The position numbers and the translations under genes were made by a program. The notes under the pieces were generated by a model, which saw only the letters and a program-made list of their open reading frames with translations, was not told the origin of the DNA and did no database searches. A stretch of DNA of 63,911 nt, the filler included, from a bacterium (GTDB lineage Bacteria > JALSQH01), in assembly GCA_026985515.1 (NCBI GenBank). It is 6 parts of 6 records of this genome, joined end to end, with 100 filler letters (N's around TTAATTAATTAA, not from the genome) between each part and the next. Parts side by side here need not be neighbours in the genome. Positions count along the whole stretch, not along the records: positions 1 to 18,017 come from JALSQH010000037.1; positions 18,118 to 36,098 come from JALSQH010000038.1; positions 36,199 to 44,392 come from JALSQH010000039.1; positions 44,493 to 54,268 come from JALSQH010000040.1; positions 54,369 to 59,112 come from JALSQH010000046.1; 1 more part is not named here. One strand, 5' to 3'. Numbering within the stretch: position 1 is the stretch's first letter; each line of letters opens with the position of its first letter. Positions 17,707-59,112 of the stretch are shown here, piece by piece.

Positions 17707-17734
17707 ATTATAATATAGAAATTTGTTTTGTCAA
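17707..17734 (-). promoter_or_regulatory. sigma70 promoter TTGACA-16-TATAAT facing the NYN leader
   Basis: Perfect hexamers on the minus strand. Confidence 0.7.
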
Positions 17735-17739
17735 CCCTA

Positions 17740-18017
17740 CGCTTTAGCTCAAAAATAATCTTACCGAAAAAGGTGGTGTTTACTCAGAAAAATTCCCATA
17801 ATAAAATTCGTGGCCGCACCAAGAAAGGCACGGCCACACCTAAACTTAACAAGGAGAGTCATATGAATATTATCTTACCAACAAAAGGATATAATCACAA
17901 CCAGAAGAGGACCATTGTTGCAATTAACTATAAACTTTACAAAAGTGCTCCCAAGAAGAAGAAAAAAGAGATTCTTGATGATTTAGAAGAAGCTACAAAA
18001 TATCACAGGAAGTATTT
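17740..18017 (+). mobile_element. IS left end, copy 1, with start of transposase (ATG 17863), truncated by contig end
   Basis: Near-identical to 58911-59112 and reverse complement of 54369-54480; N-terminal Y..A.KK.K..ILD.....T.YHRKY resembles rve/DDE integrase-type transposases; internal TTTACT-17-TAAAAT promoter and AGGAG RBS. Confidence 0.8.
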
Positions 18018-18117
18018 NNNNNNNNNNNNNNNNNNNNNNNNNNNNNNNNNNNNNNNNNNNNTTAATTAATTAANNNNNNNNNNNNNNNNNNNNNNNNNNN
18101 NNNNNNNNNNNNNNNNN
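18018..18117. other. Artificial contig linker
   Basis: N44-TTAATTAATTAA-N44 (stops in all frames). Confidence 0.98.
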
Positions 18118-18129
18118 ATTCAGTGTAAA

Positions 18130-19266
18130 TTAAATTTCACTGACCAGCTCCCTTATAATTGCATCTGCTCTGCTCCAGTTTGAATAGGGAATTCTTATGT
18201 GATTGCCATGGATCTCCAGAAGACCAAGTTCTATAAATTCCCTTACCTTCTCCGCAAGTGAAGCTTTTTCAGGCAAAATTCCCTTTCTGATCCCAAGATA
18301 AGTTCTCAATCCAAGCATAATTTTTTCAGTTATGATGGATTTTTCGTCAAGCTTTTCCATTTCTTTCACAGGGAGATTTCCGCTCTCAATTTTTTCAAAA
18401 TAGTTTCTGAGAGAGGATACATTGAAGTATCTCTTTTCTCTTTCACTGAAAAATCCATGGGCAGATATGCCCGTTCCAAGATATGAATCCCTCATCCAGT
18501 ATCCCCAGTTGTGAATCGAGAAGTTTTTCGGAAGGGCAAAATTTGATATTTCATAATGGGTGAAACCCATGGAAAGGAGATAATCATGAATGGCAATATA
18601 CCATTCACCAATGACATCATCAGCTGGAAGCCTCACCTTTCCCCTCTCATACATCTCATGGAGAGGGGTACCCCTCTCAACAATTAGAGAATAAGCAGAA
18701 ATGTGGTTGGAATATATGGTTGCGATTTCCAGATCCTTCTCTATTCTCTCCAGAGTATCATTTTCAACACCCCAGATAATGTCAGAATTGATCTTATCAA
18801 AATATTTTTCTGCTTCTTTAAGAGTCTCAAGAGCTTCTTTTCCAGTATGGATCCTTCCAAGAAACTTTAAAACCCTATCGTCAAAACTCTGAATCCCAAT
18901 TGAAACCCTATTAAATCCTATCTCCCTGTAATCTCTCAAACTTCCCCTCTCAACTGTTCCTGGATTCACCTCAATGGTTATCTCTGCAGAAGGGTGAAAA
19001 TCGGGAAAATATTTTCTTACACAATTAAGGATCATATCAAGTAGATAAGCTGATAAGAGGGAAGGTGTACCACCACCAAAATAAACAGAAATTACTCTCT
19101 CATGCTCAATCCCTTCCTCTTCAAATTTTTCCCTCCACAATTTTAACTCATTGCACAGATCTTCCGCGTATCTCTCGTGGACACTTTTATCTTTGACTGC
19201 AAAGGAAACAAAATTACAGTAAGGGCACTTTCTCACACAGAAGGGAATGTGGATGTATATTCTCAT
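18130..19266 (-). CDS. hemW: Radical SAM heme chaperone HemW (HemN-like)
   Basis: YIHIPFCVRKCPYCNF, YFGGGTPS, ITIEVNP, YEISNFA, HN..YW. Confidence 0.92.
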   Translation of the reverse strand: MRIYIHIPFCVRKCPYCNFVSFAVKDKSVHERYAEDLCNELKLWREKFEEEGIEHERVISVYFGGGTPSLLSAYLLDMILNCVRKYFPDFHPSAEITIEVNPGTVERGSLRDYREIGFNRVSIGIQSFDDRVLKFLGRIHTGKEALETLKEAEKYFDKINSDIIWGVENDTLERIEKDLEIATIYSNHISAYSLIVERGTPLHEMYERGKVRLPADDVIGEWYIAIHDYLLSMGFTHYEISNFALPKNFSIHNWGYWMRDSYLGTGISAHGFFSEREKRYFNVSSLRNYFEKIESGNLPVKEMEKLDEKSIITEKIMLGLRTYLGIRKGILPEKASLAEKVREFIELGLLEIHGNHIRIPYSNWSRADAIIRELVSEI

Positions 19267-19277
19267 ACTTCATTATA

Positions 19278-22200
19278 TCATTTCATCCGTGTAAATGTGG
19301 ATTCAAGTAACACAGAGGGTGTAAGATAGTAAAAACCATTTCCAGTGGCAATTCCAGTATTCACATAATTCTTACCGTCAACTGCGATAGCAAAGAAACC
19401 TGCATACTGACCACCAGTTTCCGTGATATGGAACTTTTTCCAGTTCCCATATTTTCCAGTCGCATAAACAATTCTGTTTGAGTTGTAAGTGGAATATACC
19501 ATGTGAACCTTTCCAGAATCATCCACAGTTATCGCTCCATGGCCTGCATAAGCATCACTACTTATCAGCTCACTTTTCCATTTTCCCGACCTGCTGGTGG
19601 CATAGAACAGATTGTTGCCAGATTTATAGATCAGGTAAATGTGATTATCTCTATCCATGGTCACATCAAAATTTCGTACAGCAGGAAAGGGAGTTTCATG
19701 TATTCTGCCTTCATTTACATCGTAATAGAGGAGTTTATTCCTCTGTTCAGAGAAATCTGAGTAAAAAATCAGAACTCTGTCTCCTCTTCCTATGATTTCA
19801 GGTACAGAATTTTCCACATCCTCCTTCCCATCTAACATTATTGGTCCCCTCCAGTCTCCATCGTTATTCTCCATATACTTAACCTGATTGTAATTATCAA
19901 CATAGATCAGGTGAATAACTCTCCTCTCATCTATAAAAAGGGATGGATAGTTCACCTGATCTCCGCCGGTATTCACAACTTCACCGTAAAAAGCAACATC
20001 CGTGTCAGGATAAAAGTACTTATGAATCAACTCACCCCTATCTGGATCATAGTAAACAAAGTGGACTTTACCCTCATCATCACTGGCCACCGCCCTTCCT
20101 GAACTCAGATCCTTATCTGTAACGGGCGTCGAGTACCAGAAATTTTTGTAAAGATAATAATAGGTAAGGCTTCCATAGCCACCGTGATTTTCCTCCACGA
20201 GAATGCCAGGAAATTTTGAATTCTCAATGTTAAACCAGATTCCACCTATCCATGAAGACTCATGATGCCCGATTTCCTGCATATCAAAGGGTAACTCATA
20301 TAAGTAAATTCTCTCCCCATCTGAAGAAGGGTTGCCAGCTGTTATGAAAATTCTGTTGTGATCATCTCTGTTAATCGAGACTGAGTGACCATCCCCCCTC
20401 AGAGATTTAACCTGCCACCCATCACCAGTTTCAACTGCCACTTTGAGGCCGGATCCCACAAATGAGGCTATAATCTCACCATCTGCACCTGCAACGACAT
20501 CGCAGTCTATGATATTTTCATTTGAAATTACCCGAGTATGCCATGTCCCATTACTTTTAAAAGCGTATTTAACCACCTCCGTATCAGAATCTGCATAAAC
20601 TATATGCGGCCTTCCCCAACCATCAAGAGCGAGAGAGTTGTAAGCTCCCACATCATGACTGCTGTTATCCACAACCGTGATGCTCCATGAAGAACCATTC
20701 TTCTCAGCATACTTCAGTTCATGATTGGTGTTATCGTAATAAGCAAGTTTTATTCTTCCAGCATTATCCACAGCAATGGAATTAAAAATGCCAGCGTCGT
20801 TGCTGTCAGGAACAGTTTCACTTACCCACCCCCCATATTTTCTGTATGAAACTCTCAATCTCCTCACCGTTGAACCATACTGATTCCTCAATTGATAGTA
20901 GGCAATATATGGAGTTCTATGACTATCAAGGGCAATAGAAGTTCTGAAGGGAGTATACAGAGAAACATTTTTGCTCTCATCAAATGTTTCAATTTCCCAA
21001 TTACCTCCCGAATAATATGCCATTCTAAAATAAGCAGTATATGTTGATCCTGAACCTTCGGGAATCATATCCACAAAGGAGATATATGGCCTCCCATTCT
21101 CATCAACTGCTATATCGGAATCCCAGCCATCACTTCCATCTGCCTCAACCACCTGATACCTCCATTCACTGCCGGCGTTGGTTGCGTAAATCAAACGACT
21201 ATCACTGGATTGAAAAACCATATGTATCCAGCCATTCCTGTCAAGGGCCATAGAAATCTTACCAGCTGGTGCTGGCAAACCTTCAATCTCTTTTCTCATA
21301 ACTCCAGGCAGATCAAAACTATTGTTCCATATCATATCCCCAAGGTAATTATAATTTCTCAATTCAAGAGAACCATTCCAGACCTCCCATGGAAATTTTT
21401 TAAGATTTACCTCTGTTGAATTGTTGTAAACATTGTCACTGTATGTCTCACCGGTGATATCTTCGTACGAGTAATTTCCAAGGAGAGTGGAGGTTCCCTC
21501 AGGATTATCCCATACAACATGCACCCCATCTGCAGCACTAACATAGTAAGCTCTTTTAACAGGATCAATTGGCAATCCCGCATTAAAAGGGGCAGACCAT
21601 TCTGAAACATTGCCAACATTATCAATCGTTCTGATTCTGTAAAGATGGGGGTATCCTGGCAAAATTGAAACATCAGTGTATGTGGTTACTCCTGCAGGGA
21701 GCTCCGCCACAGTTACAAAAAAGGTATCTATACCCTCAATCTTTCTCTGCAATTCAAAGTGGTCCAGATCAGCTGACCCGGGAAAACTCCACCCTATTTT
21801 AATCTGGTTATTACTGAAAGATACTCTGTACAGATCAGGAACTGGTGGGGGTGTGGTATCCAGAGTAACAACAGTCAAATACACAGGTGACTCATTACCT
21901 GCATAATCAACATACTTCACAAATATCTCCTTTACTCCATCACCAGAGGTTAAATACCACTCAGTTGAAGTTGTGGCGCTAATTTGATACGATTCACCAA
22001 ATGCAGGGAAGTTACTTATGAGAATTCTGGCAGTATCAGTTGAATAACCGGCAAATTTAAGATTCACTATGGGAGAATTCACCTTTCCATCCACTTTAAC
22101 ATCTTCAACTTCTGCCGGTGAACCTTCGGGAGGAGTGGTGTCTTTAATAAATTTCAAAACAGCAGATGTTTCATTTCCTGCGTAATCTCTGAAAGATATT

Positions 22201-23435
22201 CTCAGAGTGTAATCACCATCAGAAGTAAGCGTGACAGAATAGTACTGCTGATAAGGCATCCAGCGTGAAACACTACCATTTACTCTTATTCTGAAATCCT
22301 TTACCCCACTTTCATTGTCAGAAACCACAGAATTCAGAGGAAGCTCTCCCCTCCCTCTGAAATACAGCCTTTCTCCATATCTGACAACATCACCTGTGTC
22401 TATAATGCCAAGATAAATTACCTCGGGTTTCCCCTGATCAAGATAAATCGACTCTTTCAATACCCCTGTCTCATAACCATACTGGTCCCTGAAATTCACA
22501 CAAACAGTTTTCATTCCGCTTCCCTCAGTTAGCAGCCACTCCTCGGTGGCTTTGAAAATCTTCCATCCTGTAAAGTGACAATCTCCATCATAGTAATTTC
22601 CAGTGGTCATTGCAGTTGCATTAAAACCATACAGCTCAAGTTTAACTTCCCGTGTTGATGAAAATGAATAATCCGGGACAGGTTCCCCATTTTCACCTTT
22701 AACATATCCTCTAATTTTAAATGCACCTGTCACTCTGAAAAGTACCACATTACCCACATCTTTTACACCATTCTTTTCATCTGCAATAACTATATTGTCA
22801 ATTTTCCTTGTAAGGTATCCATCTTTCTTTATCAGAAGTGAATACTTCCCGGCATAGACATTATTGAAGTGAAACTCTCCATCCTCATCAACAGTTTTTA
22901 CCACTGTAAAATCTGATGTTTCAGCGGGGAAACTTTCACTCATTTTTCCAAAACCTGATTTTGAAGTGGAAACTCTTTTCAAGATAACAATTGCTCCATC
23001 TGGAGAGGAAGATTCCCCTCCACTCTGTTGCAGGACCACCTTTCCAGTCAGCAGAAATTTCAGAGCTCTTACGAAAATTTCACCTGTATCCTGGATGGTT
23101 CCTATCCCCACAGAGATTTTTTTCACCGTTCTAACAAAATATTTCTCAGATACAATTATTGAGTAATTTCCAGGTATTACACCTGTAAACTTGAACTTTC
23201 CCTCTCTATCTGTAACGACGCTTTTTGAATCAAGTTTTCCCTGAAGAAGTACAGTAACACCAGCATAGTCACTTTCTCCCTCAAGAACAATATGACCTGT
23301 AACCACACTCCTTTTCTGGTATCTGACCGGATCAGCTTCGGGATCGTAGGCATTAGTATGATCAAGATTATCTGAGCAGGAAATCAGAAAAAAAGCAATG
23401 AAAAGAAAAAGAAAAAAAATTCTTGGAGAACTCAT
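19278..23435 (-). CDS. Large surface lipoprotein: carboxypeptidase-regulatory-like and Ig/FN3-like domains plus beta-propeller repeats
   Basis: Lipobox LISC, NAYDP, TDREGKFKF..V.PGNYS, DYAGN/DTTPP repeats, FN3-like YTD...PG..H.YRIR, repeated S(I/L)A(V/L)D..G.PHI.Y blades. Confidence 0.8.
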   Translation of the reverse strand: MSSPRIFFLFLFIAFFLISCSDNLDHTNAYDPEADPVRYQKRSVVTGHIVLEGESDYAGVTVLLQGKLDSKSVVTDREGKFKFTGVIPGNYSIIVSEKYFVRTVKKISVGIGTIQDTGEIFVRALKFLLTGKVVLQQSGGESSSPDGAIVILKRVSTSKSGFGKMSESFPAETSDFTVVKTVDEDGEFHFNNVYAGKYSLLIKKDGYLTRKIDNIVIADEKNGVKDVGNVVLFRVTGAFKIRGYVKGENGEPVPDYSFSSTREVKLELYGFNATAMTTGNYYDGDCHFTGWKIFKATEEWLLTEGSGMKTVCVNFRDQYGYETGVLKESIYLDQGKPEVIYLGIIDTGDVVRYGERLYFRGRGELPLNSVVSDNESGVKDFRIRVNGSVSRWMPYQQYYSVTLTSDGDYTLRISFRDYAGNETSAVLKFIKDTTPPEGSPAEVEDVKVDGKVNSPIVNLKFAGYSTDTARILISNFPAFGESYQISATTSTEWYLTSGDGVKEIFVKYVDYAGNESPVYLTVVTLDTTPPPVPDLYRVSFSNNQIKIGWSFPGSADLDHFELQRKIEGIDTFFVTVAELPAGVTTYTDVSILPGYPHLYRIRTIDNVGNVSEWSAPFNAGLPIDPVKRAYYVSAADGVHVVWDNPEGTSTLLGNYSYEDITGETYSDNVYNNSTEVNLKKFPWEVWNGSLELRNYNYLGDMIWNNSFDLPGVMRKEIEGLPAPAGKISMALDRNGWIHMVFQSSDSRLIYATNAGSEWRYQVVEADGSDGWDSDIAVDENGRPYISFVDMIPEGSGSTYTAYFRMAYYSGGNWEIETFDESKNVSLYTPFRTSIALDSHRTPYIAYYQLRNQYGSTVRRLRVSYRKYGGWVSETVPDSNDAGIFNSIAVDNAGRIKLAYYDNTNHELKYAEKNGSSWSITVVDNSSHDVGAYNSLALDGWGRPHIVYADSDTEVVKYAFKSNGTWHTRVISNENIIDCDVVAGADGEIIASFVGSGLKVAVETGDGWQVKSLRGDGHSVSINRDDHNRIFITAGNPSSDGERIYLYELPFDMQEIGHHESSWIGGIWFNIENSKFPGILVEENHGGYGSLTYYYLYKNFWYSTPVTDKDLSSGRAVASDDEGKVHFVYYDPDRGELIHKYFYPDTDVAFYGEVVNTGGDQVNYPSLFIDERRVIHLIYVDNYNQVKYMENNDGDWRGPIMLDGKEDVENSVPEIIGRGDRVLIFYSDFSEQRNKLLYYDVNEGRIHETPFPAVRNFDVTMDRDNHIYLIYKSGNNLFYATSRSGKWKSELISSDAYAGHGAITVDDSGKVHMVYSTYNSNRIVYATGKYGNWKKFHITETGGQYAGFFAIAVDGKNYVNTGIATGNGFYYLTPSVLLESTFTRMK

Positions 23436-23481
23436 CTGATCCTCCCCGCAGAAAGGATTTTCTTACATTTTAACACTAAAG

Positions 23482-23524
23482 ATTATAATCTGAAAGTAAA
23501 AAAAATTCTGTGACAGATGTCACA
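23482..23524 (-). promoter_or_regulatory. CRP/FNR-family box (23509-23524) with -10 TATAAT (23482-23487): class II-type promoter for the large lipoprotein gene
   Basis: TGTGAcagatgTCACA; centre about 41.5 bp upstream of the predicted start site. Confidence 0.7.
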
Positions 23525-23559
23525 AAATCAACAAAAAGTAAAATTTCTTACCGGTCATA

Positions 23560-23588
23560 TTGACACCACTCTGTCCAGTTTATAAAAT
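23560..23588 (+). promoter_or_regulatory. sigma70 promoter for rnj, TTGACA-17-TAAAAT
   Basis: Near-consensus hexamers 35 bp upstream of the ATG. Confidence 0.65.
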
Positions 23589-23623
23589 TTTTTTCAGTTT
23601 ATATTCAAGGTGAGGATAAAAAA

Positions 23624-25273
23624 ATGATCAGAATTCTCTGTCTGGGTGGCTGTGGTGAAATTGGACTGAACAGCATCGTGGTAGAAATTAATGAAAAACT
23701 CATACTTATTGACTCAGGTATGGGTTTCCCTTCATGTTCCCATTATGGGGTTGACCTTTTAATTCCCGATTTTAAGTATATCAGGGAAAATCAGGAAAAA
23801 CTTGAGGCAATTCTGCTCACTCATGGGCATGAGGATCATATCGGCGCACTACCCTACCTCTTTTCCCAACTGGAAAGGAGTGTTCCCGTCTTTGGAGGAG
23901 AATTCACTCTTGCCCTTGCAGAAAAAAGATTTGAAGGATTTGAAACTGAATCTAAACCTAAATGGAGTGTGGTAAGTCCATTTGAGAAAATGGAAATTAA
24001 TGAAAACATTTTTGCAAAGTTTATTCCTGTTACCCACAGTACTGTTGACAGCTATGCAATCGCACTCTATACGGACGAAGGGATCATTTTCCATACGGGA
24101 GATTTTAAAATAGATAGATCTCCATTAAACGGGGATCCATTCCCTGAAAATGAAATTAGAAACGTTGGAAGTGAAGGTGTTAAAATCCTGTTATCAGAAA
24201 GTACAAATGTTGAACTTCCAGGTTACTCTCTCCCCGAAAAGGATGTAAAAGAATCTCTATTCAAAATTTTCGAAAAGGCAGAGGGAAGGATTCTATTTAC
24301 AACCTTCTCCTCTCATATAACAAGAATTAAAGAAGTTATTGACATTTCAGCTCAGCTCGGAAGAAAAGTTTATATCAGCGGAAGAAGCATAAAGGAAAGT
24401 GTTGAGATTGCTTTTAAACTTGGGATTTTTGGAGAAGAGGAGAGAAAAGCCATTATTGGCGATTTATCGGACATTCCAGACAGAGCTTTTACAATAATTG
24501 TAACGGGAAGTCAGGGAGAACCATTCTCCACCCTTTACAGAATTTCCAGAAATGAAGATAGAAACATCAAGATAAAACCTGACGACATAGTAATAATTTC
24601 AGCCAAATTTATTCCAGGACAGGAAAAGGCAATCTACAGTTACATCAACAGACTTTACAAGCTGGGAGTAAAAGAGGTTTTTTATGAGAAACTTCACCAG
24701 GTTCATGCCTCAGGCCATGCCCACAGAGAAGAACTCAGAGAGATGATCAGAATGATCAGGCCTGAGATTTTCATTCCCGTTCATGGTGAATACAGACATC
24801 TTGAGCTTCACAGAAGACTCGCAAGTGAAGAAGGGATCGAAAAAACCTTTGTCCTTCAGAATGGTGAAGGAGTGGTGATAGAAGGAGAAGAAATTCATAA
24901 ATTTGAGTATCCAGTTGGAGTAACTTACATAGATGGATTAAGTACCGGAGATCTCTCGGGAGAAGTGATGAAAAAGAGAAAATTCATTTCAAGGGAGGGA
25001 TTGATAGTTCTTTTTGGCGTCATTAACAGTGCAAGGGAGTTTTCCTTTGGACCCAAGATATTCTCTCTGGGAATTGTGGAGGAAGATGTTTTTGAAGAAT
25101 TGAAAGAAAGGATTACAGGGATAACTACTGAAGTTTTAAAAAACATTAAAAAGGTTTCTCCTGATCACATACCACTTATTGAAGAAGAGATGAGAGTCAG
25201 GATCAGAAGATTTATGAGAGGAGTAACGGGTAAAAACCCTCTCATTACTGTTATTCTGGAATTTGAAAATTAG
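23624..25273 (+). CDS. rnj: Ribonuclease J
   Basis: LGG.GEIG.N, THGHEDHIG, HTGDFKID, ESTN, GSQGEP, HASGH, PVHGEYRH. Confidence 0.95.
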   Translation: MIRILCLGGCGEIGLNSIVVEINEKLILIDSGMGFPSCSHYGVDLLIPDFKYIRENQEKLEAILLTHGHEDHIGALPYLFSQLERSVPVFGGEFTLALAEKRFEGFETESKPKWSVVSPFEKMEINENIFAKFIPVTHSTVDSYAIALYTDEGIIFHTGDFKIDRSPLNGDPFPENEIRNVGSEGVKILLSESTNVELPGYSLPEKDVKESLFKIFEKAEGRILFTTFSSHITRIKEVIDISAQLGRKVYISGRSIKESVEIAFKLGIFGEEERKAIIGDLSDIPDRAFTIIVTGSQGEPFSTLYRISRNEDRNIKIKPDDIVIISAKFIPGQEKAIYSYINRLYKLGVKEVFYEKLHQVHASGHAHREELREMIRMIRPEIFIPVHGEYRHLELHRRLASEEGIEKTFVLQNGEGVVIEGEEIHKFEYPVGVTYIDGLSTGDLSGEVMKKRKFISREGLIVLFGVINSAREFSFGPKIFSLGIVEEDVFEELKERITGITTEVLKNIKKVSPDHIPLIEEEMRVRIRRFMRGVTGKNPLITVILEFEN

Positions 25274-26007
25274 ATGTGAAAATACGCGAGGAATTCCACA
25301 TTTCCCTTCTGTCCCTTGATTGGGGATTCAACCCATCCCTCAATCACAAGGCCAAGATTTCTGGCAAAATTTAATATTTTTTCAACAGCTTCCATCTGAT
25401 ATTCTCTTTTACGCACCACCCCACCCTTTCCCACTTTCTCCCTTCCCACCTCAAACTGGGGTTTAATAAGTACGACTATTTCTTTCCTTCCCTCAAGGAT
25501 CCCGTAGATAACAGGTAGAACCAGCGTCAGGGAGATAAAGGAAAGATCCAGGGTTGCCATAACAGGCGGTATTTGAAAATGTTCTCTGGTTACATACCTG
25601 ATATTGGTGTTGTCCATAACCACAACTCTTGGATCCTTCTGAAGTTTCCAGTGTAACTGCCCCCTTCCCACATCCACCGCATATACGAGCCTGGCTCCCC
25701 TCTGCAACAGGAGATCAGTGAAGCCCCCTGTAGAAGCCCCTGCATCAATAACCACCTTATCTCTAACATCGATATTAAAGTGATCAAGAGCCTTTTGAAG
25801 TTTAAGGCCTCCCCTGCTCACATAGGGCAATCTCTCTCTGACCCTGAGCGGCGCGTCAACGGGAAGAAGTTCACCTGCCTTCTCTATTTTTCTGTTTTCA
25901 AGAAAAACCTCTCCAGCAAGGATTAATGCACGCGCCTTCTCCCTCGATTCTGCAAGACCCCTTTCTACAAGGAGCAGATCAGCCCTTTTCTTTTCAACCA
26001 TGGGCAA
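25270..26007 (-). CDS. tlyA: TlyA family rRNA 2'-O-methyltransferase
   Basis: S4 domain, YVSRGGLKL, DAGASTGGFTD, DLSFISL, IKPQFE. Confidence 0.95.
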   Translation of the reverse strand: MPMVEKKRADLLLVERGLAESREKARALILAGEVFLENRKIEKAGELLPVDAPLRVRERLPYVSRGGLKLQKALDHFNIDVRDKVVIDAGASTGGFTDLLLQRGARLVYAVDVGRGQLHWKLQKDPRVVVMDNTNIRYVTREHFQIPPVMATLDLSFISLTLVLPVIYGILEGRKEIVVLIKPQFEVGREKVGKGGVVRKREYQMEAVEKILNFARNLGLVIEGWVESPIKGQKGNVEFLAYFHI

Positions 26008-27868: not shown

Positions 27869-27877
27869 TTTTTCCTC

Positions 27878-29509: not shown

Positions 29510-29522
29510 TTCTATTCCTCCT

Positions 29523-30317: not shown

Positions 30318-30336
30318 TTTTAACCTTTAATTTTTT

Positions 30337-30367
30337 AAAAAAAAAGCACTCATTAACGAGTGCTTTT
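30337..30367 (-). terminator. Intrinsic terminator downstream of the tRNA pair
   Basis: AAAAGCACTC-gttaat-GAGTGCTTTT plus long T run on the minus strand. Confidence 0.7.
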
Positions 30368-46755: not shown

Positions 46756-46756
46756 T

Positions 46757-47215: not shown

Positions 47216-47224
47216 ATTTCCCCC

Positions 47225-47635: not shown

Positions 47636-47647
47636 TATTTCCACCTC

Positions 47648-48589: not shown

Positions 48590-48642
48590 ATCTCCTCCCA
48601 CTTTATTAAAAAGATAGCAACTTTTTCCAAGTAATACAAGAA

Positions 48643-49395: not shown

Positions 49396-49509
49396 TGTGA
49401 ACTCCTTTTTTAATGATTATAACACCAGAATACCTGTTTTCAATGAAAAATTTTTATTTGCATTTCCCTCTATCTCTGAATATACTAAAAGCAAACAAAA
49501 GGAGTGGTT

Positions 49510-50376: not shown

Positions 50377-51464
50377 TGGAATTAAAAAAGACCCCTCTTT
50401 ATAAGGACCACCTCTCACTTGGTGCAAGAATGGTTGAATTTGCGGGCTTTTCCATGCCTGTTCAGTATGTGGGGGTGGTAAAAGAACATTTAAACACAAG
50501 GGAACACGTATCCATTTTTGATGTAAGCCACATGGGAGAAATTATAGTTGAGGGGGTAAACTCAGCACAGTTTCTTCAGAAAATGACAAGTAATGACATA
50601 GGCAAACTCTACGATGGCAGAGCTCAATACTCAATCCTTATGAATGAAAAGGGTGGAGCAGTTGACGATATAGTAATCTACAGGTTTGAAGCAGAAAAGT
50701 ACTTCATATGTGTAAATGCTGCCAATCGAGAAAAAGATTACAACTGGTTAGTTGACCACAAAATAGAGGGAGTTTCAATAACAAATGCCTCTGATGATTA
50801 TGCACAGATTGCGGCTCAGGGTCCAGAAAGTATATCCTTGTTAGAAGAACTTACCGGGATAAGACTTTCAGATGTAAAATTTTACCACTTCATTACCGGC
50901 AAATTCCCGGGGGACATAGATACTATCTACTCCCGAACAGGATATACAGGAGAACCTGGATTTGAACTCTATATTCCTCCAGAAAAGGCAAGTTATGTGT
51001 GGAACACGCTTCTCGAAGAAGGGAAAAAATACAATATAATGCCTGCAGGACTCGGAGCAAGGGATACTTTAAGACTTGAAATGGGTTATCCGCTCTATGG
51101 TCATGAACTCAAAGAAGACATTTCTCCACTGGAGGCTGGTCTGGAGAGATTCGTTAAACTTGAGAAGGGGGAATTTTTAGGTAGAGAGGTCCTTATAGAA
51201 CAGAAAGAGAAAGGATTGAAGAAAAAGCTATATCCCATTCTGATGGAAAAAGGAATAGCCAGAGAGGGTTATGATATACTTGTAAATTCTGAGAAAAAGG
51301 GTTATATTACCAGTGGAACGATGTCACCCGTATTGAAAAAAGGAATTGCACTTGGATTCATAGAGGATACGGGTTTGAAAAAAAATGATCAGGTTGATAT
51401 TATTATCAGAAACAAACCATTTTCAGGACGGATCTGGGAATTGCCTTTTATAAAAAAACATTAA
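50373..51464 (+). CDS. gcvT: Glycine cleavage aminomethyltransferase T
   Basis: [39 protein letters not shown]. Confidence 0.96.
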
Positions 51465-51481
51465 ACAAAGGAGAAAGGAAC

Positions 51482-51916
51482 ATGAAGATCAGGATTCCCC
51501 AGGGAGATGATATCAGGTATACAGAAACCCATGAGTGGGCCAGGAAGGAGAGCGACACTCTCATCTCCATCGGGATTACAGAGTACGCTGTTAAAGAGCT
51601 CGGAGACATAGTCTATATCGAACTCCCGGATGTTGAAACATCAATAGAGGCAAAAGAAGCCTTTGGCACAATTGAATCTGTAAAAGCTGTTTCTGATCTC
51701 ATTTCTCCTGTTACCGGTACAATAGTACAGGTGAACGAATCCATTGCAGAAGCTCCTGAAGAACTTGCGGATGATCCATACGAAGAAGGATGGCTCATCA
51801 AAGTGGAAGTGGAGGATCCTTCAGAATTTGAAGACCTTATGACTGCAGAAGAATACATAGAGTATCTCAACGAAGAATCTTCCGAACCAATAGAAGTGGA
51901 GGAAGAGGAAGAGTAA
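51482..51916 (+). CDS. gcvH: Glycine cleavage H protein
   Basis: THEW, GIT.YA..LGDIVY.ELP, ESVKAVSD (lipoyl Lys), DPY..GW. Confidence 0.95.
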   Translation: MKIRIPQGDDIRYTETHEWARKESDTLISIGITEYAVKELGDIVYIELPDVETSIEAKEAFGTIESVKAVSDLISPVTGTIVQVNESIAEAPEELADDPYEEGWLIKVEVEDPSEFEDLMTAEEYIEYLNEESSEPIEVEEEEE

Positions 51917-53244
51917 TGTTTATCCCCCACTCTCCAGACGATATTGAAAGTCTGCTTCAAGAAATAGGTTTAAAAAAAATAGAAGATCTGTTTGCACATA
52001 TTCCGCAAAAAGTAAGAAAAAATAGTGACATAAGAATTGAATCACTTGAAGATCAGGCACATCTTGAATCTCTCTTTTACTCCCTTGCAGAGAAAAACAA
52101 AATTCCTCCCCGGGAAAAGATCTTTCTTGGAGGTGGCTATTACAATCATTACATCCCTGCTCCCATCGATGAAATAATTTCCCGAACAGAATTCTACACA
52201 GCATACACACCTTATCAGCCAGAAATAAGTCAGGGAACATTGCAGGCACTCTTTGAATTTCAGACGCTCATTGCTGACCTCTTTGGAATGGAAGTGGCGA
52301 ATTCTTCCATGTATGATGGAGCCACTGCCCTTGCAGAGGCAATTTTAATGGCTAAAAGGATAAAAAGGAAAAACGGTGAAAATGTCCTTATACCTCAAAA
52401 TGTTCATCCCGAGTATATACAGACAGTAAAAACCTATGTCAGAAACAGCGGAATAAATATCATTGAAATTCCCTACACAAGTGATGGAAAAGTAAACCTG
52501 GATTTCATAGAAAAGTCAAAAGATATCTTCGCTGTTGTTGCTGGTTATCCCAATTTTTTTGGAATAATGGAAGATCTGGAAACCATCGGCAAACTCACCC
52601 ACGATAAAGACGCTCTACTGATCTCTGTGACAATGGAACCCCTTTCCCTCGCTCTTTTTGATCCTCCAGGATTTTACGATGTTGATATAGCTGTGGGAGA
52701 GGGACAGAGTTTTGGCATACCTCTATACTTTGGAGGACCCGGTCTTGGTCTTTTTACCACAAAAATGGAGTTTGTGAGACAGATGCCCGGAAGACTTGTT
52801 GGAGAAACGGTGGATAAAAATGGCAACAGAGGTTATGTCCTGACACTTGCCACAAGGGAACAGCACATCAGAAGAGAAAAGGCAACATCAAATATCTGCT
52901 CCAATCAGGGACTTAATGCACTTATAGCAACCATCTATCTATCTCTGCTGGGCAGAGATGGACTCGTTGAACTTGCCACAATTAACTATAAGCTTTCCCA
53001 TTATTTAAAGGATAGACTGATAGAAAAAGGAGTTAAAATACCCTTTGAAGGGGAATTTTTCAATGAATTTGTGGTGGAAATTGAAAGCAGCAAAATGGAA
53101 AAATTGAAACATAAAGGATTCAGGCCTGGAATAAGACTTGATAAATTCAAAACGGACTGGAAAAATCTCCATTTATTAACGGTCACAGAATTGAACAGTA
53201 AAGAATCGATTGAGCAACTAATAAAAGAACTGGTTCATATATGA
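51916..53244 (+). CDS. gcvPA: Glycine dehydrogenase subunit 1
   Basis: YTAYTPYQPEISQGTLQ, NSSMYDGA, TREQHIRREKATSNICSNQ. Confidence 0.96.
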   Translation: MFIPHSPDDIESLLQEIGLKKIEDLFAHIPQKVRKNSDIRIESLEDQAHLESLFYSLAEKNKIPPREKIFLGGGYYNHYIPAPIDEIISRTEFYTAYTPYQPEISQGTLQALFEFQTLIADLFGMEVANSSMYDGATALAEAILMAKRIKRKNGENVLIPQNVHPEYIQTVKTYVRNSGINIIEIPYTSDGKVNLDFIEKSKDIFAVVAGYPNFFGIMEDLETIGKLTHDKDALLISVTMEPLSLALFDPPGFYDVDIAVGEGQSFGIPLYFGGPGLGLFTTKMEFVRQMPGRLVGETVDKNGNRGYVLTLATREQHIRREKATSNICSNQGLNALIATIYLSLLGRDGLVELATINYKLSHYLKDRLIEKGVKIPFEGEFFNEFVVEIESSKMEKLKHKGFRPGIRLDKFKTDWKNLHLLTVTELNSKESIEQLIKELVHI

Positions 53245-54268
53245 AAAGGACAGGTCAGCACATAACATTCAGAGAAAAATTGTTGTTTGAACTGTCAAAA
53301 GATGGGAAAAGGGGGGTAAGATTTAAAGACCCTCTGCCTGATTACCCACTCCCGGAAAAAGTCAGAAAAGAATTTCGATCACTTCCTTCCCTTTCCGAGG
53401 TTGAAGTGGTCCGCCACTTTGTGAGGCTTTCCAGATTGAATTATGCTGTGGATTACGGTCTATATCCTCTTGGTTCATGCACAATGAAGTACAACCCCAA
53501 AGTCACAGAGAAAATTGCGAAGAATAGCAAATTTACAGATGCACATCCATATCTGGAAGAGGAAGATGTTCAGGGTATACTGGAAATAATGTACATGCTT
53601 CAGGAAGCCCTTGCGGAGATCTCTGGTTTACCGGGCGTTACCCTTCAACCTGCTGCAGGTGCACATGGAGAACTCACAGGCATGCTTATTATGAAAGCTT
53701 ATCATGAAGATAGAAAGACAGGAAAGGATACTGTCATTATTCCTGACACAGCTCATGGAACGAATCCCGCTTCAAGCAGAATGGCGGGATTCAGAGTTGT
53801 ATCAGTAAAGGTTGGAGATAAAGGTTATCTCACAGTTGATGATGTAAAAAAGATTCTGGATGACAGAATTGCAGGAATTATGATAACAAACCCGAATACT
53901 CTGGGAATCTTTGAAGAAGAACTTTACGACATATCAGAACTTCTGCATAAAAAAGGTGCACTTGTATATGGTGACGGAGCGAATATGAATGCCCTCATGG
54001 GGTATGTAAAACCTTCTGAACTGGGTATAGATATTCTTCACTTCAATCTGCACAAGACATTTTCAACCCCACATGGCGGGGGAGGGCCTGGAGCAGGTCC
54101 TGTGGCTGTAAGAGAATTTTTAAAAGATTATTTACCGGTTCCAGTAGTATCAAAAAATGGAAACAGATACTTTCTAAACTACCAAATACCCAGAACAATT
54201 GGAAAGGTAAAAGAATTTTACGGTCACACTGCAGTTATCATAAAAGCCCTTGCATACATTCTCCTGCT
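53241..54268 (+). CDS. gcvPB: Glycine dehydrogenase subunit 2 (truncated by contig end)
   Basis: PLGSCTMKYNP, QPAAGAHGE, AHGTNPAS, NLHKTFSTPHGGGGPG. Confidence 0.95.
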
Positions 54269-54368
54269 NNNNNNNNNNNNNNNNNNNNNNNNNNNNNNNN
54301 NNNNNNNNNNNNTTAATTAATTAANNNNNNNNNNNNNNNNNNNNNNNNNNNNNNNNNNNNNNNNNNNN
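54269..54368. other. Artificial contig linker
   Basis: N44-TTAATTAATTAA-N44. Confidence 0.98.
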
Positions 54369-54480
54369 TGTTATGTTTTGATGTGGCCGTGCCTTTCTTG
54401 GTGCGACCACGAATTTTATTATGGGAATTTTTCTGAGTAAACACCACCTTTTTCGGTAAGATTATTTTTGAGCTAAAGCG
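54369..54480 (-). mobile_element. IS left end, copy 2 (inverted)
   Basis: Reverse complement of CGCTTTAGCTCAAAAATAATCTTACCGAAAAAGG...GGCCACATCAAAACATAACA, matching copy 3. Confidence 0.82.
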
Positions 54481-54485
54481 AAAAC

Positions 54486-54514
54486 TTGACTTTTTTGGGT
54501 AAATTTGCTATTTT
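54486..54514 (+). promoter_or_regulatory. sigma70 promoter TTGACT-17-TATTTT (extended TGn) for the SBBP gene
   Basis: Hexamer spacing of 17 bp with TG at the extended -10 position. Confidence 0.55.
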
Positions 54515-54570
54515 TCACCCAGATTGTTGTTTATGGAAGAAGAGGGGTAACTGGAAAAGGGAGGGATAAC

Positions 54571-57500
54571 ATGAGAAATTTATCTGAAAAACCAAAGATT
54601 TTTAAGTGGTGTCTTTTGCTAATTTTTGTTTTCCTTCCTGTTGTCTTCCTTAGTAAAAATTTGGTGTACAAAAAACTTAACATTGCTGAGAAAGAAGTTT
54701 ATATTTTTCACAGACAGTCTGAAAATGCTGCTAAAAGAAATTTTGATCTAACATCGGGTAAGACTGCAGAGGTTATTAAGGGTCTGAGTATTCCATTTGT
54801 TGAAAATATTGGTCAGAAAGATATGAATGTTAAGTTTTACGCCGATCTTATTATAGGAACCCTCTTTGTGATGAGGGATGGAGAAATAGTGTATGCATTG
54901 AAGGGTAGAGGAGGAAGAATTGATGTAATCAGGGAGAAATTTAACTGGAACAATGTAAGGGTTGAAAGTGGTGAAAAATCTACCACAAGTATCAGTTATT
55001 TTGTTGGAAAGAAGAGATTTTCGAATATACCTGCTTACAGGTATGTAACAATAAAAGCTGCTGATGGAAAGACAGGTCTGAAATTAATAGCATATGGTGG
55101 AAAAGTAGAAAAAATGTTTGAAATAGAACCTGGTGTCAATCCTTCAGAGATTGTGGTTGAAGTGAAAGGTGCTGAACATATGAGTTTGATTAACGGCGAA
55201 TTATATTTGACAACAAAATTTGGTACCTATCGCTTTAGCAGACCTATATTTTTTCAAAATGCTGGTAATAAAAGGCTCACATACAGGGGGCAATATAGAA
55301 TAATAGATGAAACCCATTATGGTTTTGAAATAAAAAGTTATGACAGAAGCAGGCCACTTTATATTGATCCTGTAATGTATGGTACTTACATTGGTGGTGG
55401 CAGCAGGGATAATAACTGCGGAGGGTTTGGTAATGATGAAGTAAAGGCTGTTTATGTTAATTCAGATGGCGCAGTTTTTATCGCCGGCTTCACATGTGGA
55501 GATTTCCCAGTAACATCAGGAAGTTACGACACAACCTGTAACAAAAATGGTGATATCTTTATAGCAAAGTTCAGTCACGATTTAAACAAATTGCTTTCTG
55601 CCACCTACCTTGGAGGTAAGGGGAATGAGCATGTGACAGGGATTCAGTTTTCCAATGGAGCTCTCTACGTGGCAGGGTACACCTATTCAGCTGATTTCCC
55701 TATAGCTGGAGGTTATCAGTATTCAATTGGTAGTACAACGGCCACAGATGGATTTATTGCCAGGTTCAGTGAGGATCTGAGCACTCTTGAAGCGTCAACA
55801 TACCTTGGTGGTTCAGATGATGATGGAATTACTTCTTTATTTATAACTTCAGATGGAACAGTATTTGTTGGCGGATACACGGCTTCCGTGGATTTCCCCG
55901 GTGTGAATGGTTTTCAAAAGAGTGTAAAGGGGCATATGGAGGGTTTCGTCAGTAAACTGAATGAAAACTTTTCTGAAATTTTGTCTTCAACTTATCTTGG
56001 TGGAAGTGATTTTGACTGGGTAACATCTGTGTTTGCTGGTGGGACAGGGTATGTATATGTAGCAGGGTGGACTGACTCCTATGATTTTCCAGTTACAGAT
56101 GAAGCCTATCAGAAGGATAAGAGCTGGAGCACTGAGGGGTTTGTGAGTAAATTTGATGCCACTTTGAGTAATCTGATTGCTTCAACGTACATAGGTGGAG
56201 AAGAAGATGATGAAATCAAAGCTCTCTATGTAACCCCTGTAGGGAAGGTCTTTATTGCTGGGTGGACCTGGTCAGATGATTTCCCTGTTGTAGGAGGATT
56301 TCAGAATACCAGGAAGGGTTCTGCTGATGGTTTTGTATCAAGGTTCAGCGGTAATTTACACACTCTTGAAGCATCTACCTATCTTGGTGGTACCGATGAC
56401 GATGAGATAAGTACCGTTAAGGTTTCTGAGGATGGGAATATATATGTTGCTGGGAGAACAGAGTCATATGATTTTCCTGTAACTTCTGAAGCATTTCAGA
56501 AGATAAATAAAACCAGTGAGGATTACATTTATGAAGGGTTTATATCAAGGTTAAATTGGGATCTGAGTGATTTACTGTCGTCAACATATTTTGGCGGGAA
56601 AAATGACGATGAAGTTGAGGCCATTTTTATTACTTCAAATAGAGAGATTTATGTAGCAGGATGGACAGACTCCTATGATTTCCCCGTAACTCAGGAGGCT
56701 TTTCAGGATAGATTGAAGGGGATGTCAGATGGTTTTATCGGTAGATTTGATTACAAATTATGGAAACTTCTTGCCTCAACTTATATTGGAGGAGGAGGTT
56801 TTGAATTTATTACTTCAATTTACGTGAGTAAAAATGGAGATGTGTATGCAGGCGGAGATACTTTCTCGTACGATTTCCCTACAACATCCCAGGCTTATAG
56901 AAAAGAACTTTCAGGTACAATGGACGGATTTGTTGTGAGGTTATCAAATGATTTAAGCAACCTCAAAGCTGCTACATATATTGGTGGGAGTGAAGAAGAT
57001 GGTGTGAACAACGTTTTTGAATCAAATGGAAAAGTTTACATTGCAGGGGGTACAGACTCCGATGATTTTCCCGTGGTAAACGGGTTTCAGAATCATAGAG
57101 GTGGTGACGAGGATGGTTTTATTGTGTTGATGAGCGATGATTTGAGCAGGCTTGAAGCATCAACATATATTGGTGGAAGTGACGAGGATGATGTAAATTC
57201 TCTGTGGGTTACGGATGACGGTAAAGTTTTTATAGCAGGTTTTACATATTCTGACGATTATCCCACCACCAATGCTTTTCAGTCAAAAATCAATGGAGGA
57301 ACTGATGGGTTTATAAGCAGACTTGATTCTTCTCTGGGTAATCTTATTGCATCAACCTATCTCGGTGGAAGCGAAGATGATGAAATATATTCCATTTACG
57401 TCACTGGAAGTGTGATTTATGTGGGGGGAGGAACATTCTCAGATGATTTCCCTGTAAAGGGAGCTTTTCAGGGGAACAAAAAGTGTTGTGAAGATGGTTT

Positions 57501-58611
57501 CATCAGCAAGCTTGATACTGGCTTACAGGATCTTATCGCATCTACTTTTATTGGGGGAGACGATTTAGATGAAGTGGACTCCATCTATGTCACTTCCGGT
57601 GGTGATGTGTATGCAGGGGGATGGACATGGTCAGATGATTTCCCTCTTAGGGGATCCCCTTATCAGGATAGTATAAAGGAAGACGGAGATATATTTGTTA
57701 TCAGGATGAGTGGTGACCTTGTCAATCTTCTTGCATCAACATACTTTGGGGGAAATCAGGATGATTATGTAAACTCGGTCATTGTAAAAAATGACGGGGT
57801 GTATGTGGCAGGATACACAGGATCAGAAGATTTCCCCATTTCAGGAAGTTATCAGAGGAAGTTTGGTGGTGGCTGGTTGGACGGATTTGTAAGTAAAATG
57901 GATCCTGATCTTTCCCATCTTATTGCATCCACTTATTTTGGTGGTAGCGGGTTGGATGTAATTATTTCTTCCTACTCATCTGGGGAAGGTATATATATTG
58001 CGGGTTTTACAACCTCTCCTGATCTCAATATGTATGGATATGATGTTACATTTGGGGGTTGTTCAGATGGATTTATCGCTTTTCTATCATCAGATTATTT
58101 TGTTAATCATCCTCCTGTATTAAATTCCGTGGCTGCTGAGCCATCCAGCGGAAATGCTCCCTTAAATGTTGTTATTTCAGTGGATGCTTCTGATCCAGAT
58201 GGAGATCCTCTTAAGTATTATTATGATTGTAACGGAGATAACAACTATGAGGAAACTGACAGTGACAACAATACGTATCAGTGCACCTATTCAAATCCAG
58301 GCACATACTATGCACAGGTCAGGGTATCAGATGGGAAGGCTACAACTCAAAGTGAGAAAATAAAGATAGAAGTATACAGCAGCGGAGAAAGTGGTGAAGG
58401 TAATGAAGGTGGAGAAACAGGTGGAAATGAAGGTGAAGGGAGTTCAGGTGGAAGTAAGGGAACATCAGGTAAAGGATTATCTTCAGGTGGTGAGAAATCC
58501 TCTGGCTGTGGATGTCGTGTAGATGGGAGTGGTAACAACTGGGGAGATTTTATGGTGATGCTTCTTCTCCTTCCTGTGTGGATTGGAGTGAGGAGAAGGG
58601 GGAGAGTTTAA
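54571..58611 (+). CDS. Surface protein with SBBP beta-propeller repeats, PKD domain and MYXO-CTERM-like sorting signal
   Basis: N-terminal F.EN.GQ...V.FY / L.IDP domain; 14 (A)STY(L/I/F)GG...G.T.S.DFP repeats; NHPP...GNAPL.V PKD; G/E/S linker; SGCGC + TM + RRR. Confidence 0.88.
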   Translation: MRNLSEKPKIFKWCLLLIFVFLPVVFLSKNLVYKKLNIAEKEVYIFHRQSENAAKRNFDLTSGKTAEVIKGLSIPFVENIGQKDMNVKFYADLIIGTLFVMRDGEIVYALKGRGGRIDVIREKFNWNNVRVESGEKSTTSISYFVGKKRFSNIPAYRYVTIKAADGKTGLKLIAYGGKVEKMFEIEPGVNPSEIVVEVKGAEHMSLINGELYLTTKFGTYRFSRPIFFQNAGNKRLTYRGQYRIIDETHYGFEIKSYDRSRPLYIDPVMYGTYIGGGSRDNNCGGFGNDEVKAVYVNSDGAVFIAGFTCGDFPVTSGSYDTTCNKNGDIFIAKFSHDLNKLLSATYLGGKGNEHVTGIQFSNGALYVAGYTYSADFPIAGGYQYSIGSTTATDGFIARFSEDLSTLEASTYLGGSDDDGITSLFITSDGTVFVGGYTASVDFPGVNGFQKSVKGHMEGFVSKLNENFSEILSSTYLGGSDFDWVTSVFAGGTGYVYVAGWTDSYDFPVTDEAYQKDKSWSTEGFVSKFDATLSNLIASTYIGGEEDDEIKALYVTPVGKVFIAGWTWSDDFPVVGGFQNTRKGSADGFVSRFSGNLHTLEASTYLGGTDDDEISTVKVSEDGNIYVAGRTESYDFPVTSEAFQKINKTSEDYIYEGFISRLNWDLSDLLSSTYFGGKNDDEVEAIFITSNREIYVAGWTDSYDFPVTQEAFQDRLKGMSDGFIGRFDYKLWKLLASTYIGGGGFEFITSIYVSKNGDVYAGGDTFSYDFPTTSQAYRKELSGTMDGFVVRLSNDLSNLKAATYIGGSEEDGVNNVFESNGKVYIAGGTDSDDFPVVNGFQNHRGGDEDGFIVLMSDDLSRLEASTYIGGSDEDDVNSLWVTDDGKVFIAGFTYSDDYPTTNAFQSKINGGTDGFISRLDSSLGNLIASTYLGGSEDDEIYSIYVTGSVIYVGGGTFSDDFPVKGAFQGNKKCCEDGFISKLDTGLQDLIASTFIGGDDLDEVDSIYVTSGGDVYAGGWTWSDDFPLRGSPYQDSIKEDGDIFVIRMSGDLVNLLASTYFGGNQDDYVNSVIVKNDGVYVAGYTGSEDFPISGSYQRKFGGGWLDGFVSKMDPDLSHLIASTYFGGSGLDVIISSYSSGEGIYIAGFTTSPDLNMYGYDVTFGGCSDGFIAFLSSDYFVNHPPVLNSVAAEPSSGNAPLNVVISVDASDPDGDPLKYYYDCNGDNNYEETDSDNNTYQCTYSNPGTYYAQVRVSDGKATTQSEKIKIEVYSSGESGEGNEGGETGGNEGEGSSGGSKGTSGKGLSSGGEKSSGCGCRVDGSGNNWGDFMVMLLLLPVWIGVRRRGRV

Positions 58612-58736
58612 GGGATGTTTCTCAGGGTTATTCAGACCCGCTTCAGATGCTTGCCCGGTAGTGTAAACTTTTATTCGCAAAAAAGTTGCGGTAGGATTTT
58701 TTAATGAATAAAACTTGCGAGAAAGGAGGAAGGACG

Positions 58737-58880
58737 ATGAAAGGAATGTTAAATTTCAGGGAGACTCAAATTAACAAAAATTGGAGGCCAGATGTAACTC
58801 CGGCCCCCACCACCACACGTCCCCTCTTCACAGAGGAGACATTAGGCAAGGCATTTGAAGTATCTTACCACTATCTATGA
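58737..58880 (+). CDS. Possible 47-aa small ORF, antisense to the candidate sRNA
   Basis: AGGAGG 7 nt before ATG; MKGMLNFRETQINKNWRPDVTPAPTTTRPLFTEETLGKAFEVSYHYL*; no recognisable motif. Confidence 0.25.
   Translation: MKGMLNFRETQINKNWRPDVTPAPTTTRPLFTEETLGKAFEVSYHYL
58773..58870 (-). ncRNA. Candidate ~95-nt three-hairpin small RNA
   Basis: Promoter TTGATA-17-TATCAT; stems GGTAAG/CTTGCC, TGTCTCCTCT-GTGA-AGAGGGGACG, GGGGGCCGGA/TCTGGCCTCC then AATTTTTGTT; G.U pairs work only on the minus strand. Confidence 0.6.
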
Positions 58881-58905
58881 TACTCTTTTTGAGGACATTT
58901 ATCAA
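58877..58905 (-). promoter_or_regulatory. sigma70 promoter TTGATA-17-TATCAT
   Basis: 5/6 matches in both hexamers with 17-bp spacing. Confidence 0.6.
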
Positions 58906-58910
58906 GTTTT

Positions 58911-59112
58911 CGCTTTAGCTCAAAAATAATCTTACCGAAAAAGGTGGTGTTTACTCAGAAAAATTCCCATAATAAAATTCGTGGTCGCACCAAGAAAGGC
59001 ACGGCCACATCAAAACATAACAAGGAGAGTCATATGAATATTATCTTACCAACAAAAGGATATAATCACAACCAGAAGAGGACCATTGTTGCAATTAACT
59101 ATAAACTTTACA
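58911..59112 (+). mobile_element. IS left end, copy 3, with transposase start (ATG 59034), truncated by contig end
   Basis: Near-identical to 17740-17941; same N-terminal MNIILPTKGYNHNQKRTIVAINYKLY. Confidence 0.82.

Follow-up and report, generated by a model that had tools for sequence, protein, structure and literature searches.

An insertion sequence found 5 bp upstream of predicted sigma70-type promoters in uncultured bacteria

Why should the truncated copies of a mobile element each lie beside a promoter, at one and the same distance and with the promoter reading away from it? The question is raised by a window of 63,911 nucleotides (the whole stretch of DNA that was analysed, from the bacterial assembly GCA_026985515.1), in which a sequence-only reading had recognised three copies of an insertion sequence (IS), each with an outward-reading -35 hexamer 5 bp outside its end and a -10 box beyond it, and had proposed that the transposase targets promoters and leaves them intact. 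The IS starts reported there are confirmed: the 27-nt start has three exact matches in the window, at 17740 (+), 54454-54480 (-) and 58911 (+), with none expected from shuffles. The -35 hexamers and -10 boxes were re-read at their reported places, and all three promoters are also called by an independent consensus promoter scan. The picture of three copies on one stretch of genome had to be given up: copies 2 and 3 are the opposite ends of a single 4.7-kb contig, and together the three copies mark three ends on two separate contigs.

What is repeated is the left terminus of a ~1.5-kb IS with one rve-type (DDE) transposase of about 415-470 amino acids. Insertion is in one orientation only: the left inverted repeat (IRL, the end proximal to the transposase) stands upstream of a pre-existing, predicted sigma70-type promoter directed away from the IS, at a distance of 5 bp from the -35 box. 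Homing of the IS to promoters as such is considered very probable, and the association is supported for the whole clade of elements, across at least nine genomes or populations.

Promoters at the left junctions

When the first 22 nt of the IS were sought as an exact match among metagenome contigs, six contigs of one metagenome were returned, two of them from the window, with seven junctions, all at contig ends; the same 22-mer had no exact match among the genome contigs. Six of these seven source-metagenome junctions read, outward from the tip, as five variable bases, TTGnnn, 16-17 bp and TAnnnT, often with the TG of an extended -10 box. Left junctions were then gathered from the loci by a regular expression on the inverted-repeat core, with at least 60 nt of flank and with duplicates removed by context (n = 48; 7 from the source metagenome, 11 from genome G004, 17 from genome G008 and 13 from six other genomes). 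Contigs starting at the IS tip itself (e.g., L011 and L085) are flankless and were left out of this set.

A strict promoter test, namely TTG at flank positions 6-8 together with TAnnnT at a spacer of 16-18, is passed by 41 of the 48 left junctions (6/7 from the source metagenome, 10/11 from G004, 16/17 from G008 and 9/13 from the others), and by 44 when offsets of 2-8 are allowed. In those same loci, 877 background positions out of 676,826 (0.13%) pass it, and right-end flanks from the same genomes, also intergenic in setting and read outward, pass in 1 of 41 cases. The two boxes occur together: TAnnnT stands at a spacer of 16-18 in all 41 junctions with TTG at offset 5, and in all 38 with TTGA at that offset. 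Among intergenic sites at large, a -10 box follows 179 of 1660 TTG, 105 of 624 TTGA (17%) and 37 of 95 TTGAC. Enrichment of -10 boxes at further copies had been set beforehand as a test of the sequence-only proposal, and set against the intergenic TTGA sites it came out in favour; targeting of promoters with the core promoter left intact is borne out by the strict test, its background and the right-end control.

Across the 48 flanks, the TTGA positions are occupied by T in 45, T in 45, G in 41 and A in 41 junctions, and C adjoins TTGA in 22 flanks, T in just 2. The boxes accepted are varied, with TATAAT, TAAACT, TACAAT, TATCAT and TATTTT among the -10 boxes, and TTGACA, TTGAAA, TTGTTT and TTGCAT among the -35 boxes. 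Five of the junctions failing the strict test depart from it in detail: the offset is shifted by one to three bases in L021, L091 and L104 (read from the flanks), TTAATA replaces TTGnnn in L030, and just two bases separate the tip from TTG in L004. Contigs with the L002 and L004 junctions, having loose ends at the IS tip, were also found in another study's run (X2), and a third run (X3) gave an additional junction with TTG at offset 5.

The spacer of the IS-adjacent promoter is the host's own. Among the 41 passing junctions, it is 16 in 22, 17 in 18 and 18 in 1; sorted by host (read from the rows), it is 16 in 15 of 16 junctions from G008 and 17 in 9 of 10 from G004. G008 has 238 exact TTGACA-N14-20-TATAAT sites, where a reversed control gives 7, and the spacer is 16 in ~87 among the 100 matches listed; G004 has 27 TTGACA-N-TATAAT sites, 17 of them with a spacer of 17. 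The promoter set of G008, a 2.6-Mb WOR-3-type genome, is unusually consensus-like, and its spacer is one base under the textbook 17.

What follows downstream of the junctions in the source metagenome is either a ribosome-binding site with a start codon or a short RNA that folds strongly and has a terminator; a PilB/GspE-type ATPase and a large repeat protein are among the genes. In a mechanical count, an outward open reading frame begins 30-200 nt from the IS tip at 36 of the 48 left junctions, compared with 26 of the 41 right-end flanks.

Target DNA, duplication and empty sites

Whether TTGA belongs to the IS end or to the target had been left undecided by the sequence-only reading. It is part of the target and is confined to the IRL side, and the five variable bases between it and the IS tip are a target-site duplication; of the two assignments, the one to the IS end falls away on the evidence of the duplication and of two empty sites. 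Identical 5-mers stand outside both tips of the complete copies L013 (GGGTA), L010 (TGGGG) and L008 (GGTAT), and of the complete copies L012 has none. For the genomes with many copies, the pairing was read by eye: in G004, 7 of 11 left 5-mers pair exactly with one of 13 right-end 5-mers (~0.14 expected by chance), and in G008, 11 of 17 do so with one of 17 (~0.28 expected by chance). The TCAAGTTTT common to copies 2 and 3 of the window is TTGA plus an identical 5-bp duplication.

The search for empty sites, also put forward with the sequence-only reading as a way to define the duplication, was productive in the related genome G011, where two loci carry a single 5-mer each. At L138, the left flank of L057 runs into the right flank of L075 with ~90% identity (CGGAG; CGAAG in G004), and at L143, the flank of L043 runs into that of L072 with ~82% identity. 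No match for the empty site of L030 was found in G011. At both empty sites the promoter, including TTGA and the -10 box, is already present and intact; because these sites hold the promoter, TTGA included, before insertion, TTGA is assigned to the target. Because the duplication is 5 bp long and the IRL stands 5 bp upstream of the -35 box, the staggered 5-bp cut covers about -36 to -40.

The empty site at L138 (G011:C87, ~2380-2420) is in itself a pair of back-to-back divergent promoters with 14 bp between the -35 boxes, one of which was taken by the IS in G004.

What is recognised at the promoter

Wherever TTG is in place at a junction, a -10 box at the host's spacing goes with it; recognition of TTGA alone is excluded by the data, and what is recognised is a whole promoter. 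The core promoter and the gene are left intact and everything further upstream is displaced by ~1.5 kb; the A/T-rich IRL would now occupy the place of upstream promoter (UP) elements or activator sites. For the means of recognition, a tether is favoured tentatively, at even chances or a little under: the transposase-IS complex would be held by promoter-bound RNA polymerase holoenzyme, with sigma region 4 or the alpha subunit as partner, much as in the contacts of class II activators. The holoenzyme would read the promoter, and the transposase complex would dock onto it through one of these two partners, with target DNA captured at the upstream border of the -35 contact. The RNA polymerase tether is preferred because it is the simplest source of both the degenerate taste of sigma70 and the spacer of the host.

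Four other explanations were weighed against homing by way of the polymerase. Direct bipartite readout, in which a transposase with two N-terminal helix-turn-helix-type domains binds a -35-like and a -10-like sequence and cuts beside them without RNA polymerase, is rather unlikely but is the most serious of the four. It would account for the near-invariance of TTGA in the counts given above; TCAA at positions 10-13 of both inverted repeats implies that a TCAA-reading domain already exists; and small helical domains are modelled before the catalytic core at residues 28-83 and 103-180 (in weak fold matches, Z ~5). Against it, the variants accepted at -10 and -35 show the same degeneracy as the taste of sigma70 itself, and the spacer shifts with the host promoters between 16 and 17, so that each transposase would need to copy the sigma factor of its host. 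Very improbable is a transposase that reads TTGA(C) only, with purifying selection clearing all insertions other than those upstream of promoters. Insertions within genes would indeed be lost, and intergenic TTGAC is enriched in promoters (37/95, as compared with 179/1660 for TTG), but the 519 of 624 intergenic TTGA sites that have no -10 box should be harmless, and yet all 38 TTGA junctions have one; moreover, the copies within a genome are near-identical (16 identical IRLs in G008), which implies little time for sorting.

That TTGA is an outward -35 box of the IS end, forming hybrid promoters with chance -10 boxes, is hardly credible here, well known though such boxes are in IS ends: TTGA lies outside the 5-bp duplication and on the left side only, the L011 repeat contig stops at the CG tips, and the empty sites, already holding TTGA and the -10 box, refute it. 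Least probable, to the point of being negligible, is an assembly artefact in which chimeric contig ends mimic fixed junctions. The copies of the window all lie at contig ends, as do most others, and the window is itself a concatenation of contigs; complete copies nevertheless occur inside long contigs (L010 in one of 1.05 Mb, L013 in one of 222 kb), left and right 5-mers match, empty sites exist, and the same junctions recur in the run of another study. Integron-like cassette junctions, tetranucleotide targets of the IS200/IS605 or IS91 type and invertible promoters were considered and dropped, the element having inverted repeats, a DDE transposase and a duplication.

Several observations weigh against homing to promoters or against the tether proposed for it. 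L042 and L106 have no promoter at the junction, 4 of the 48 junctions lack one at any nearby offset, and L012, with a poor -10 box and no duplication, and L004, with its short spacing, are partial exceptions. The target promoters at the junctions are themselves predictions, and the duplication of the window's own element is presumed by analogy with relatives that share ~40-50% identity in the N-terminal part of the protein. The same 5-mers recur beside different promoters: CCCTA twice (L001 and L002) and GTTTT twice (copies 2 and 3 of the window) among the seven source-metagenome junctions, GATCG twice in G004 (L030 and L043, with L072 and L078), and GGGTA three times in G003 and L021 (L013, L041 and L021). 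Such recurrence is not predicted by plain random duplication and may reflect a preference within the 5 bp or an effect of a transposition intermediate. TTGA is stricter than expected of promoters in general (A at the fourth position in 41 of 48), and this conservation, together with TCAA in both inverted repeats, leaves room for a direct reading of TTGA by the transposase.

Carriage of the recurring 5-mers from a donor site through a circle junction was considered as a separate matter and dropped as unsupported: the empty site of a GATCG copy reads TGAGC as compared with CGATC, and the difference of two bases in five, in a region of ~82% identity, fits ordinary divergence.

The element in the window and among its relatives

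The window consists of six contigs (1-18017, 18118-36098, 36199-44392, 44493-54268, 54369-59112 and 59213-63911) concatenated with N44-TTAATTAATTAA-N44 linkers (18018-18117, 36099-36198, 44393-44492, 54269-54368 and 59113-59212), and features crossing a linker are artificial. All three IS copies are cut by contig ends, keeping 278, 112 and 202 nt; contig ends inside the copies are the usual assembly breaks at a multi-copy repeat. A search with a degenerate pattern of the right inverted repeat (IRR) found no right end within the window.

Copy 1 is a left-end fragment on the plus strand (17740..18017, IRL from 17740), cut by the contig end. Outside it lie CCCTA (17735..17739), by analogy with relatives presumed to be the left copy of the 5-bp target-site duplication, and predicted target promoter 1 (17707..17734, minus strand; TTGACA 17734-17729, spacer 16, TATAAT 17712-17707), which matches the consensus at 12 of 12 positions and reads away from the IS. 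Inside it, a promoter-like site facing inward (TTTACT-17-TAAAAT, 17779-17807) precedes a hairpin in the 5' untranslated region of the transposase leader (17809-17838) and the transposase start (17863, with 51 codons present). The same consensus scan detects the inward site within every IS copy of the window, where it is probably the transposase promoter; a back-to-back layout of this kind may couple the two promoters. The leader hairpin, found in the same place in other copies, has a T-run on the opposite strand and scans as an outward-facing terminator ~70-100 bp inside the IRL; as a terminator on the outward strand, it may shield the host promoter from read-out.

From promoter 1, a short structured transcript is predicted (17622..17700, minus strand; a long hairpin with a U-run at its end, minimum free energy -32.1 kcal/mol, z -4.67), a leader or small-RNA candidate upstream of an NYN gene (16989-17303). 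Upstream of that gene, a nucleotidyltransferase-type small gene pair is present in two diverged copies (80-87%) at a distance of 1.3 kb (15448-15547 and 16750-16848), which look like tandem toxin-antitoxin-like modules.

Copy 2 is a 112-nt left-end fragment at a contig start (54369..54480, minus strand). It adjoins AAAAC (54481..54485; GTTTT in IS orientation), a presumed 5-bp target-site duplication, and predicted target promoter 2 (54486..54514, plus strand; TTGACT 54486-54491, spacer 17, extended -10 box TGc-TATTTT 54509-54514). This promoter reads into a large repeat-protein gene predicted to be under its control (54571..58611, plus strand), with a DUF7948 N-terminus and repeats of ~64 amino acids. 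Copy 3 is a 202-nt left-end fragment at the contig end (58911..59112, plus strand), preceded by GTTTT (58906..58910), likewise a presumed 5-bp duplication, and by predicted target promoter 3 (58877..58905, minus strand; TTGATA 58905-58900, spacer 17, TATCAT 58882-58877). A structured transcript of ~100 nt is predicted from promoter 3 (58772..58870, minus strand; intrinsic terminator 58809-58782, minimum free energy -47 kcal/mol, z -5.65). Neither this transcript nor the one from promoter 1 reached the gathering threshold of any Rfam family, and both are regarded as small-RNA or leader candidates. Copies 2 and 3, inverted with respect to one another, bracket the repeat-protein gene on the 4.7-kb contig (54369-59112), both IRLs facing inward and each abutting an inward-reading promoter, a layout that resembles a composite transposon.

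The attribution to an rve-type transposase was confirmed through full-length relatives; it could not have been read from the window, which holds only the first 51 codons. A word search with this 51-amino-acid N-terminus among longer proteins gave no match, nor did any Pfam or NCBIfam family; a full HMMER scan returned six short relatives, and a profile built from these led to 21 full-length proteins (285-474 amino acids), with Pfam rve recorded for 15. When five relatives were rescanned with PF00665 (cut-off 32.6 bits), three scored above the cut-off (33.9, 42.1 and 44.7) and two below (30.7 and 19.3). The same number of proteins scored 20.9-62.4 bits against IS481 family model NF033577 (curated cut-off 224), a distant relation only, and 22-33 bits against IS3 family model NF033516 (curated cut-off 160). 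A scan of species-representative genomes gave 18 loci, in metagenome-assembled genomes (MAGs) of Hydrothermota/Hydrothermia, WOR-3 and a few other groups.

From complete copies, the inverted repeats read CG(C/A)T..TCAAAAATAATCTTACCGAAA for the IRL, with a similar IRR core. The IRL starts with CGC or CGA and the IRR, read inward, with CGTC or CCCTC, the exception being L007 (TGCC), and the L011 contig of 1505 nt runs exactly from inverted-repeat tip to inverted-repeat tip. In alignment A3, the seventh residue after catalytic E317 is V or I, the eighth is a nearly invariant R325, and the nearly invariant columns between D220 and D281 include no D. The model of transposase P0008 is mediocre (mean predicted local distance difference test score 70) and poor in the catalytic core. 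Searched against the PDB with Foldseek, it had no match at E <= 0.001, integrase cores occurring only among the weak rows, and structural comparison with VIA-align gave no decisive match (best Z <= 6.8). A predicted complex of the transposase with residues 465-564 of G004 RpoD scored 0.00, in a prediction made without control runs. At L006 (8483-8608), a junction contig of the source metagenome matches the IS for the first ~69 nt and then diverges; it looks like a second variant or relic of the element.

Target-specific transposons of bacteria are few, among them Tn7 at glmS, IS1111 at attC, the bridge-RNA-guided IS110 and ISAba32 at XerCD sites. In open PubMed Central papers and bioRxiv, with subscription journals, ISfinder and supplements outside the scope, no IS was found reported to target the -35 region, and the promoter itself would be a new class of target for bacterial transposons. 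Promoters would offer safe havens: with genes left unbroken, the IS reaches 11-17 copies or more in a 2-Mb genome, and the site occurs hundreds of times per genome. Each insertion severs a promoter from the activator, repressor or UP sites upstream of it, whose place is taken by an A/T-rich IS end; in this way such elements could rewire regulation with the promoters undestroyed. The junctions provide a high-confidence promoter map for uncultured phyla, the transposase could serve for oriented insertion at promoters, and whether a DNA transposase is guided by the bacterial transcription machinery becomes directly testable. Recruitment by RNA polymerase, if true, would make the IS a naturally occurring device for setting DNA, with the gene spared, into a defined place upstream of any sigma70 promoter.

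The closest likeness in behaviour is with ISAjo2, ISKpn21 and others of the ISAba32 subgroup within the IS1202 family, a subgroup that, according to Siguier, Rousseau, Cornet and Chandler (10.1101/2022.12.17.520857; see also PMC10132070), targets XerCD recombination sites. Insertion is described there as oriented, with the IRL 5-6 bp from the target site, a duplication of 5-6 bp and a variable target sequence; what is recognised is said to be 'not the nucleotide sequence alone', and the mechanism is left open there as well (10.1101/2022.12.17.520857). The present element shares with that subgroup an rve-type transposase, a size of ~1.5 kb, a 5-bp duplication, a fixed orientation and an IRL placed 5 bp from a site bound by host protein. 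The target here is a sigma70 promoter rather than xrs/dif, and no 11-6-11 dif-like palindrome was seen in the flanks by eye, no formal xrs model being applied. Hosts of the subgroup are Proteobacteria, whereas those found here are Hydrothermota and WOR-3-type MAGs. As defined in the same source (10.1101/2022.12.17.520857), the IS1202 family has one transposase reading frame of 400-500 amino acids, an IS of 1320-1990 bp, 5'-TGT termini, Q at E+7 and two extra D residues that are conserved in the interval from the first to the second catalytic D. The sizes found here fall within these ranges (proteins of 413-474 amino acids; L011, 1505 bp), but the termini are CG and not TGT (L007 alone having TGCC), E+7 is V or I with R at +8 and not Q, and the conserved D pair is absent. 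The element thus works like one of the ISAba32 type but is not one, and appears to stand closer to the ISLbi1 group of ISNCY.

Among named elements, the transposase finds its best relatives in the ISNCY-type ISLbi1 (Leptospira biflexa) and ISBj12 (Bradyrhizobium), as annotated in RefSeq plasmid records, with ~32% identity (E 1e-42 to 1e-52) along 90-95% of its length. The ISLbi1 group is also similar in element size and is listed in ISfinder with a 5-bp duplication. One distant copy each of ISLbi1, ISBj12 and an Ensifer ISNCY element lacked TTGA at 5 bp from the end, showed no clear duplication and differed in the inverted-repeat sequences; the promoter geometry was sought in these and in the Oligoflexales locus L015, more distant relatives all, and was found in none.

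Outward -35 boxes of IS1, IS2, IS257 and others create hybrid promoters, and there, too, the promoter beside the IS end looks functional and reads into a host gene. In hybrid promoters, however, the IS supplies the -35 box, and the target contributes a -10 box only by rare chance, whereas here both boxes are target DNA, present before insertion. The ISAba32 report (10.1101/2022.12.17.520857) likewise mentions outward boxes of this kind in IS ends.

The eukaryotic elements Ty3, Ty1 and Tf1 resemble the present element in their fixed place relative to a promoter, in sparing the gene and in the rve catalytic fold. Their tethers are experimentally shown, for Ty3 at polymerase III start sites, for Ty1 upstream of polymerase III genes and for Tf1 at polymerase II promoters. 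Those elements are RNA-mediated, whereas the present one is a bacterial DNA IS whose tether is only inferred; an RNA polymerase tether, if true, would be the bacterial counterpart of Ty3, Ty1 and Tf1 tethering.

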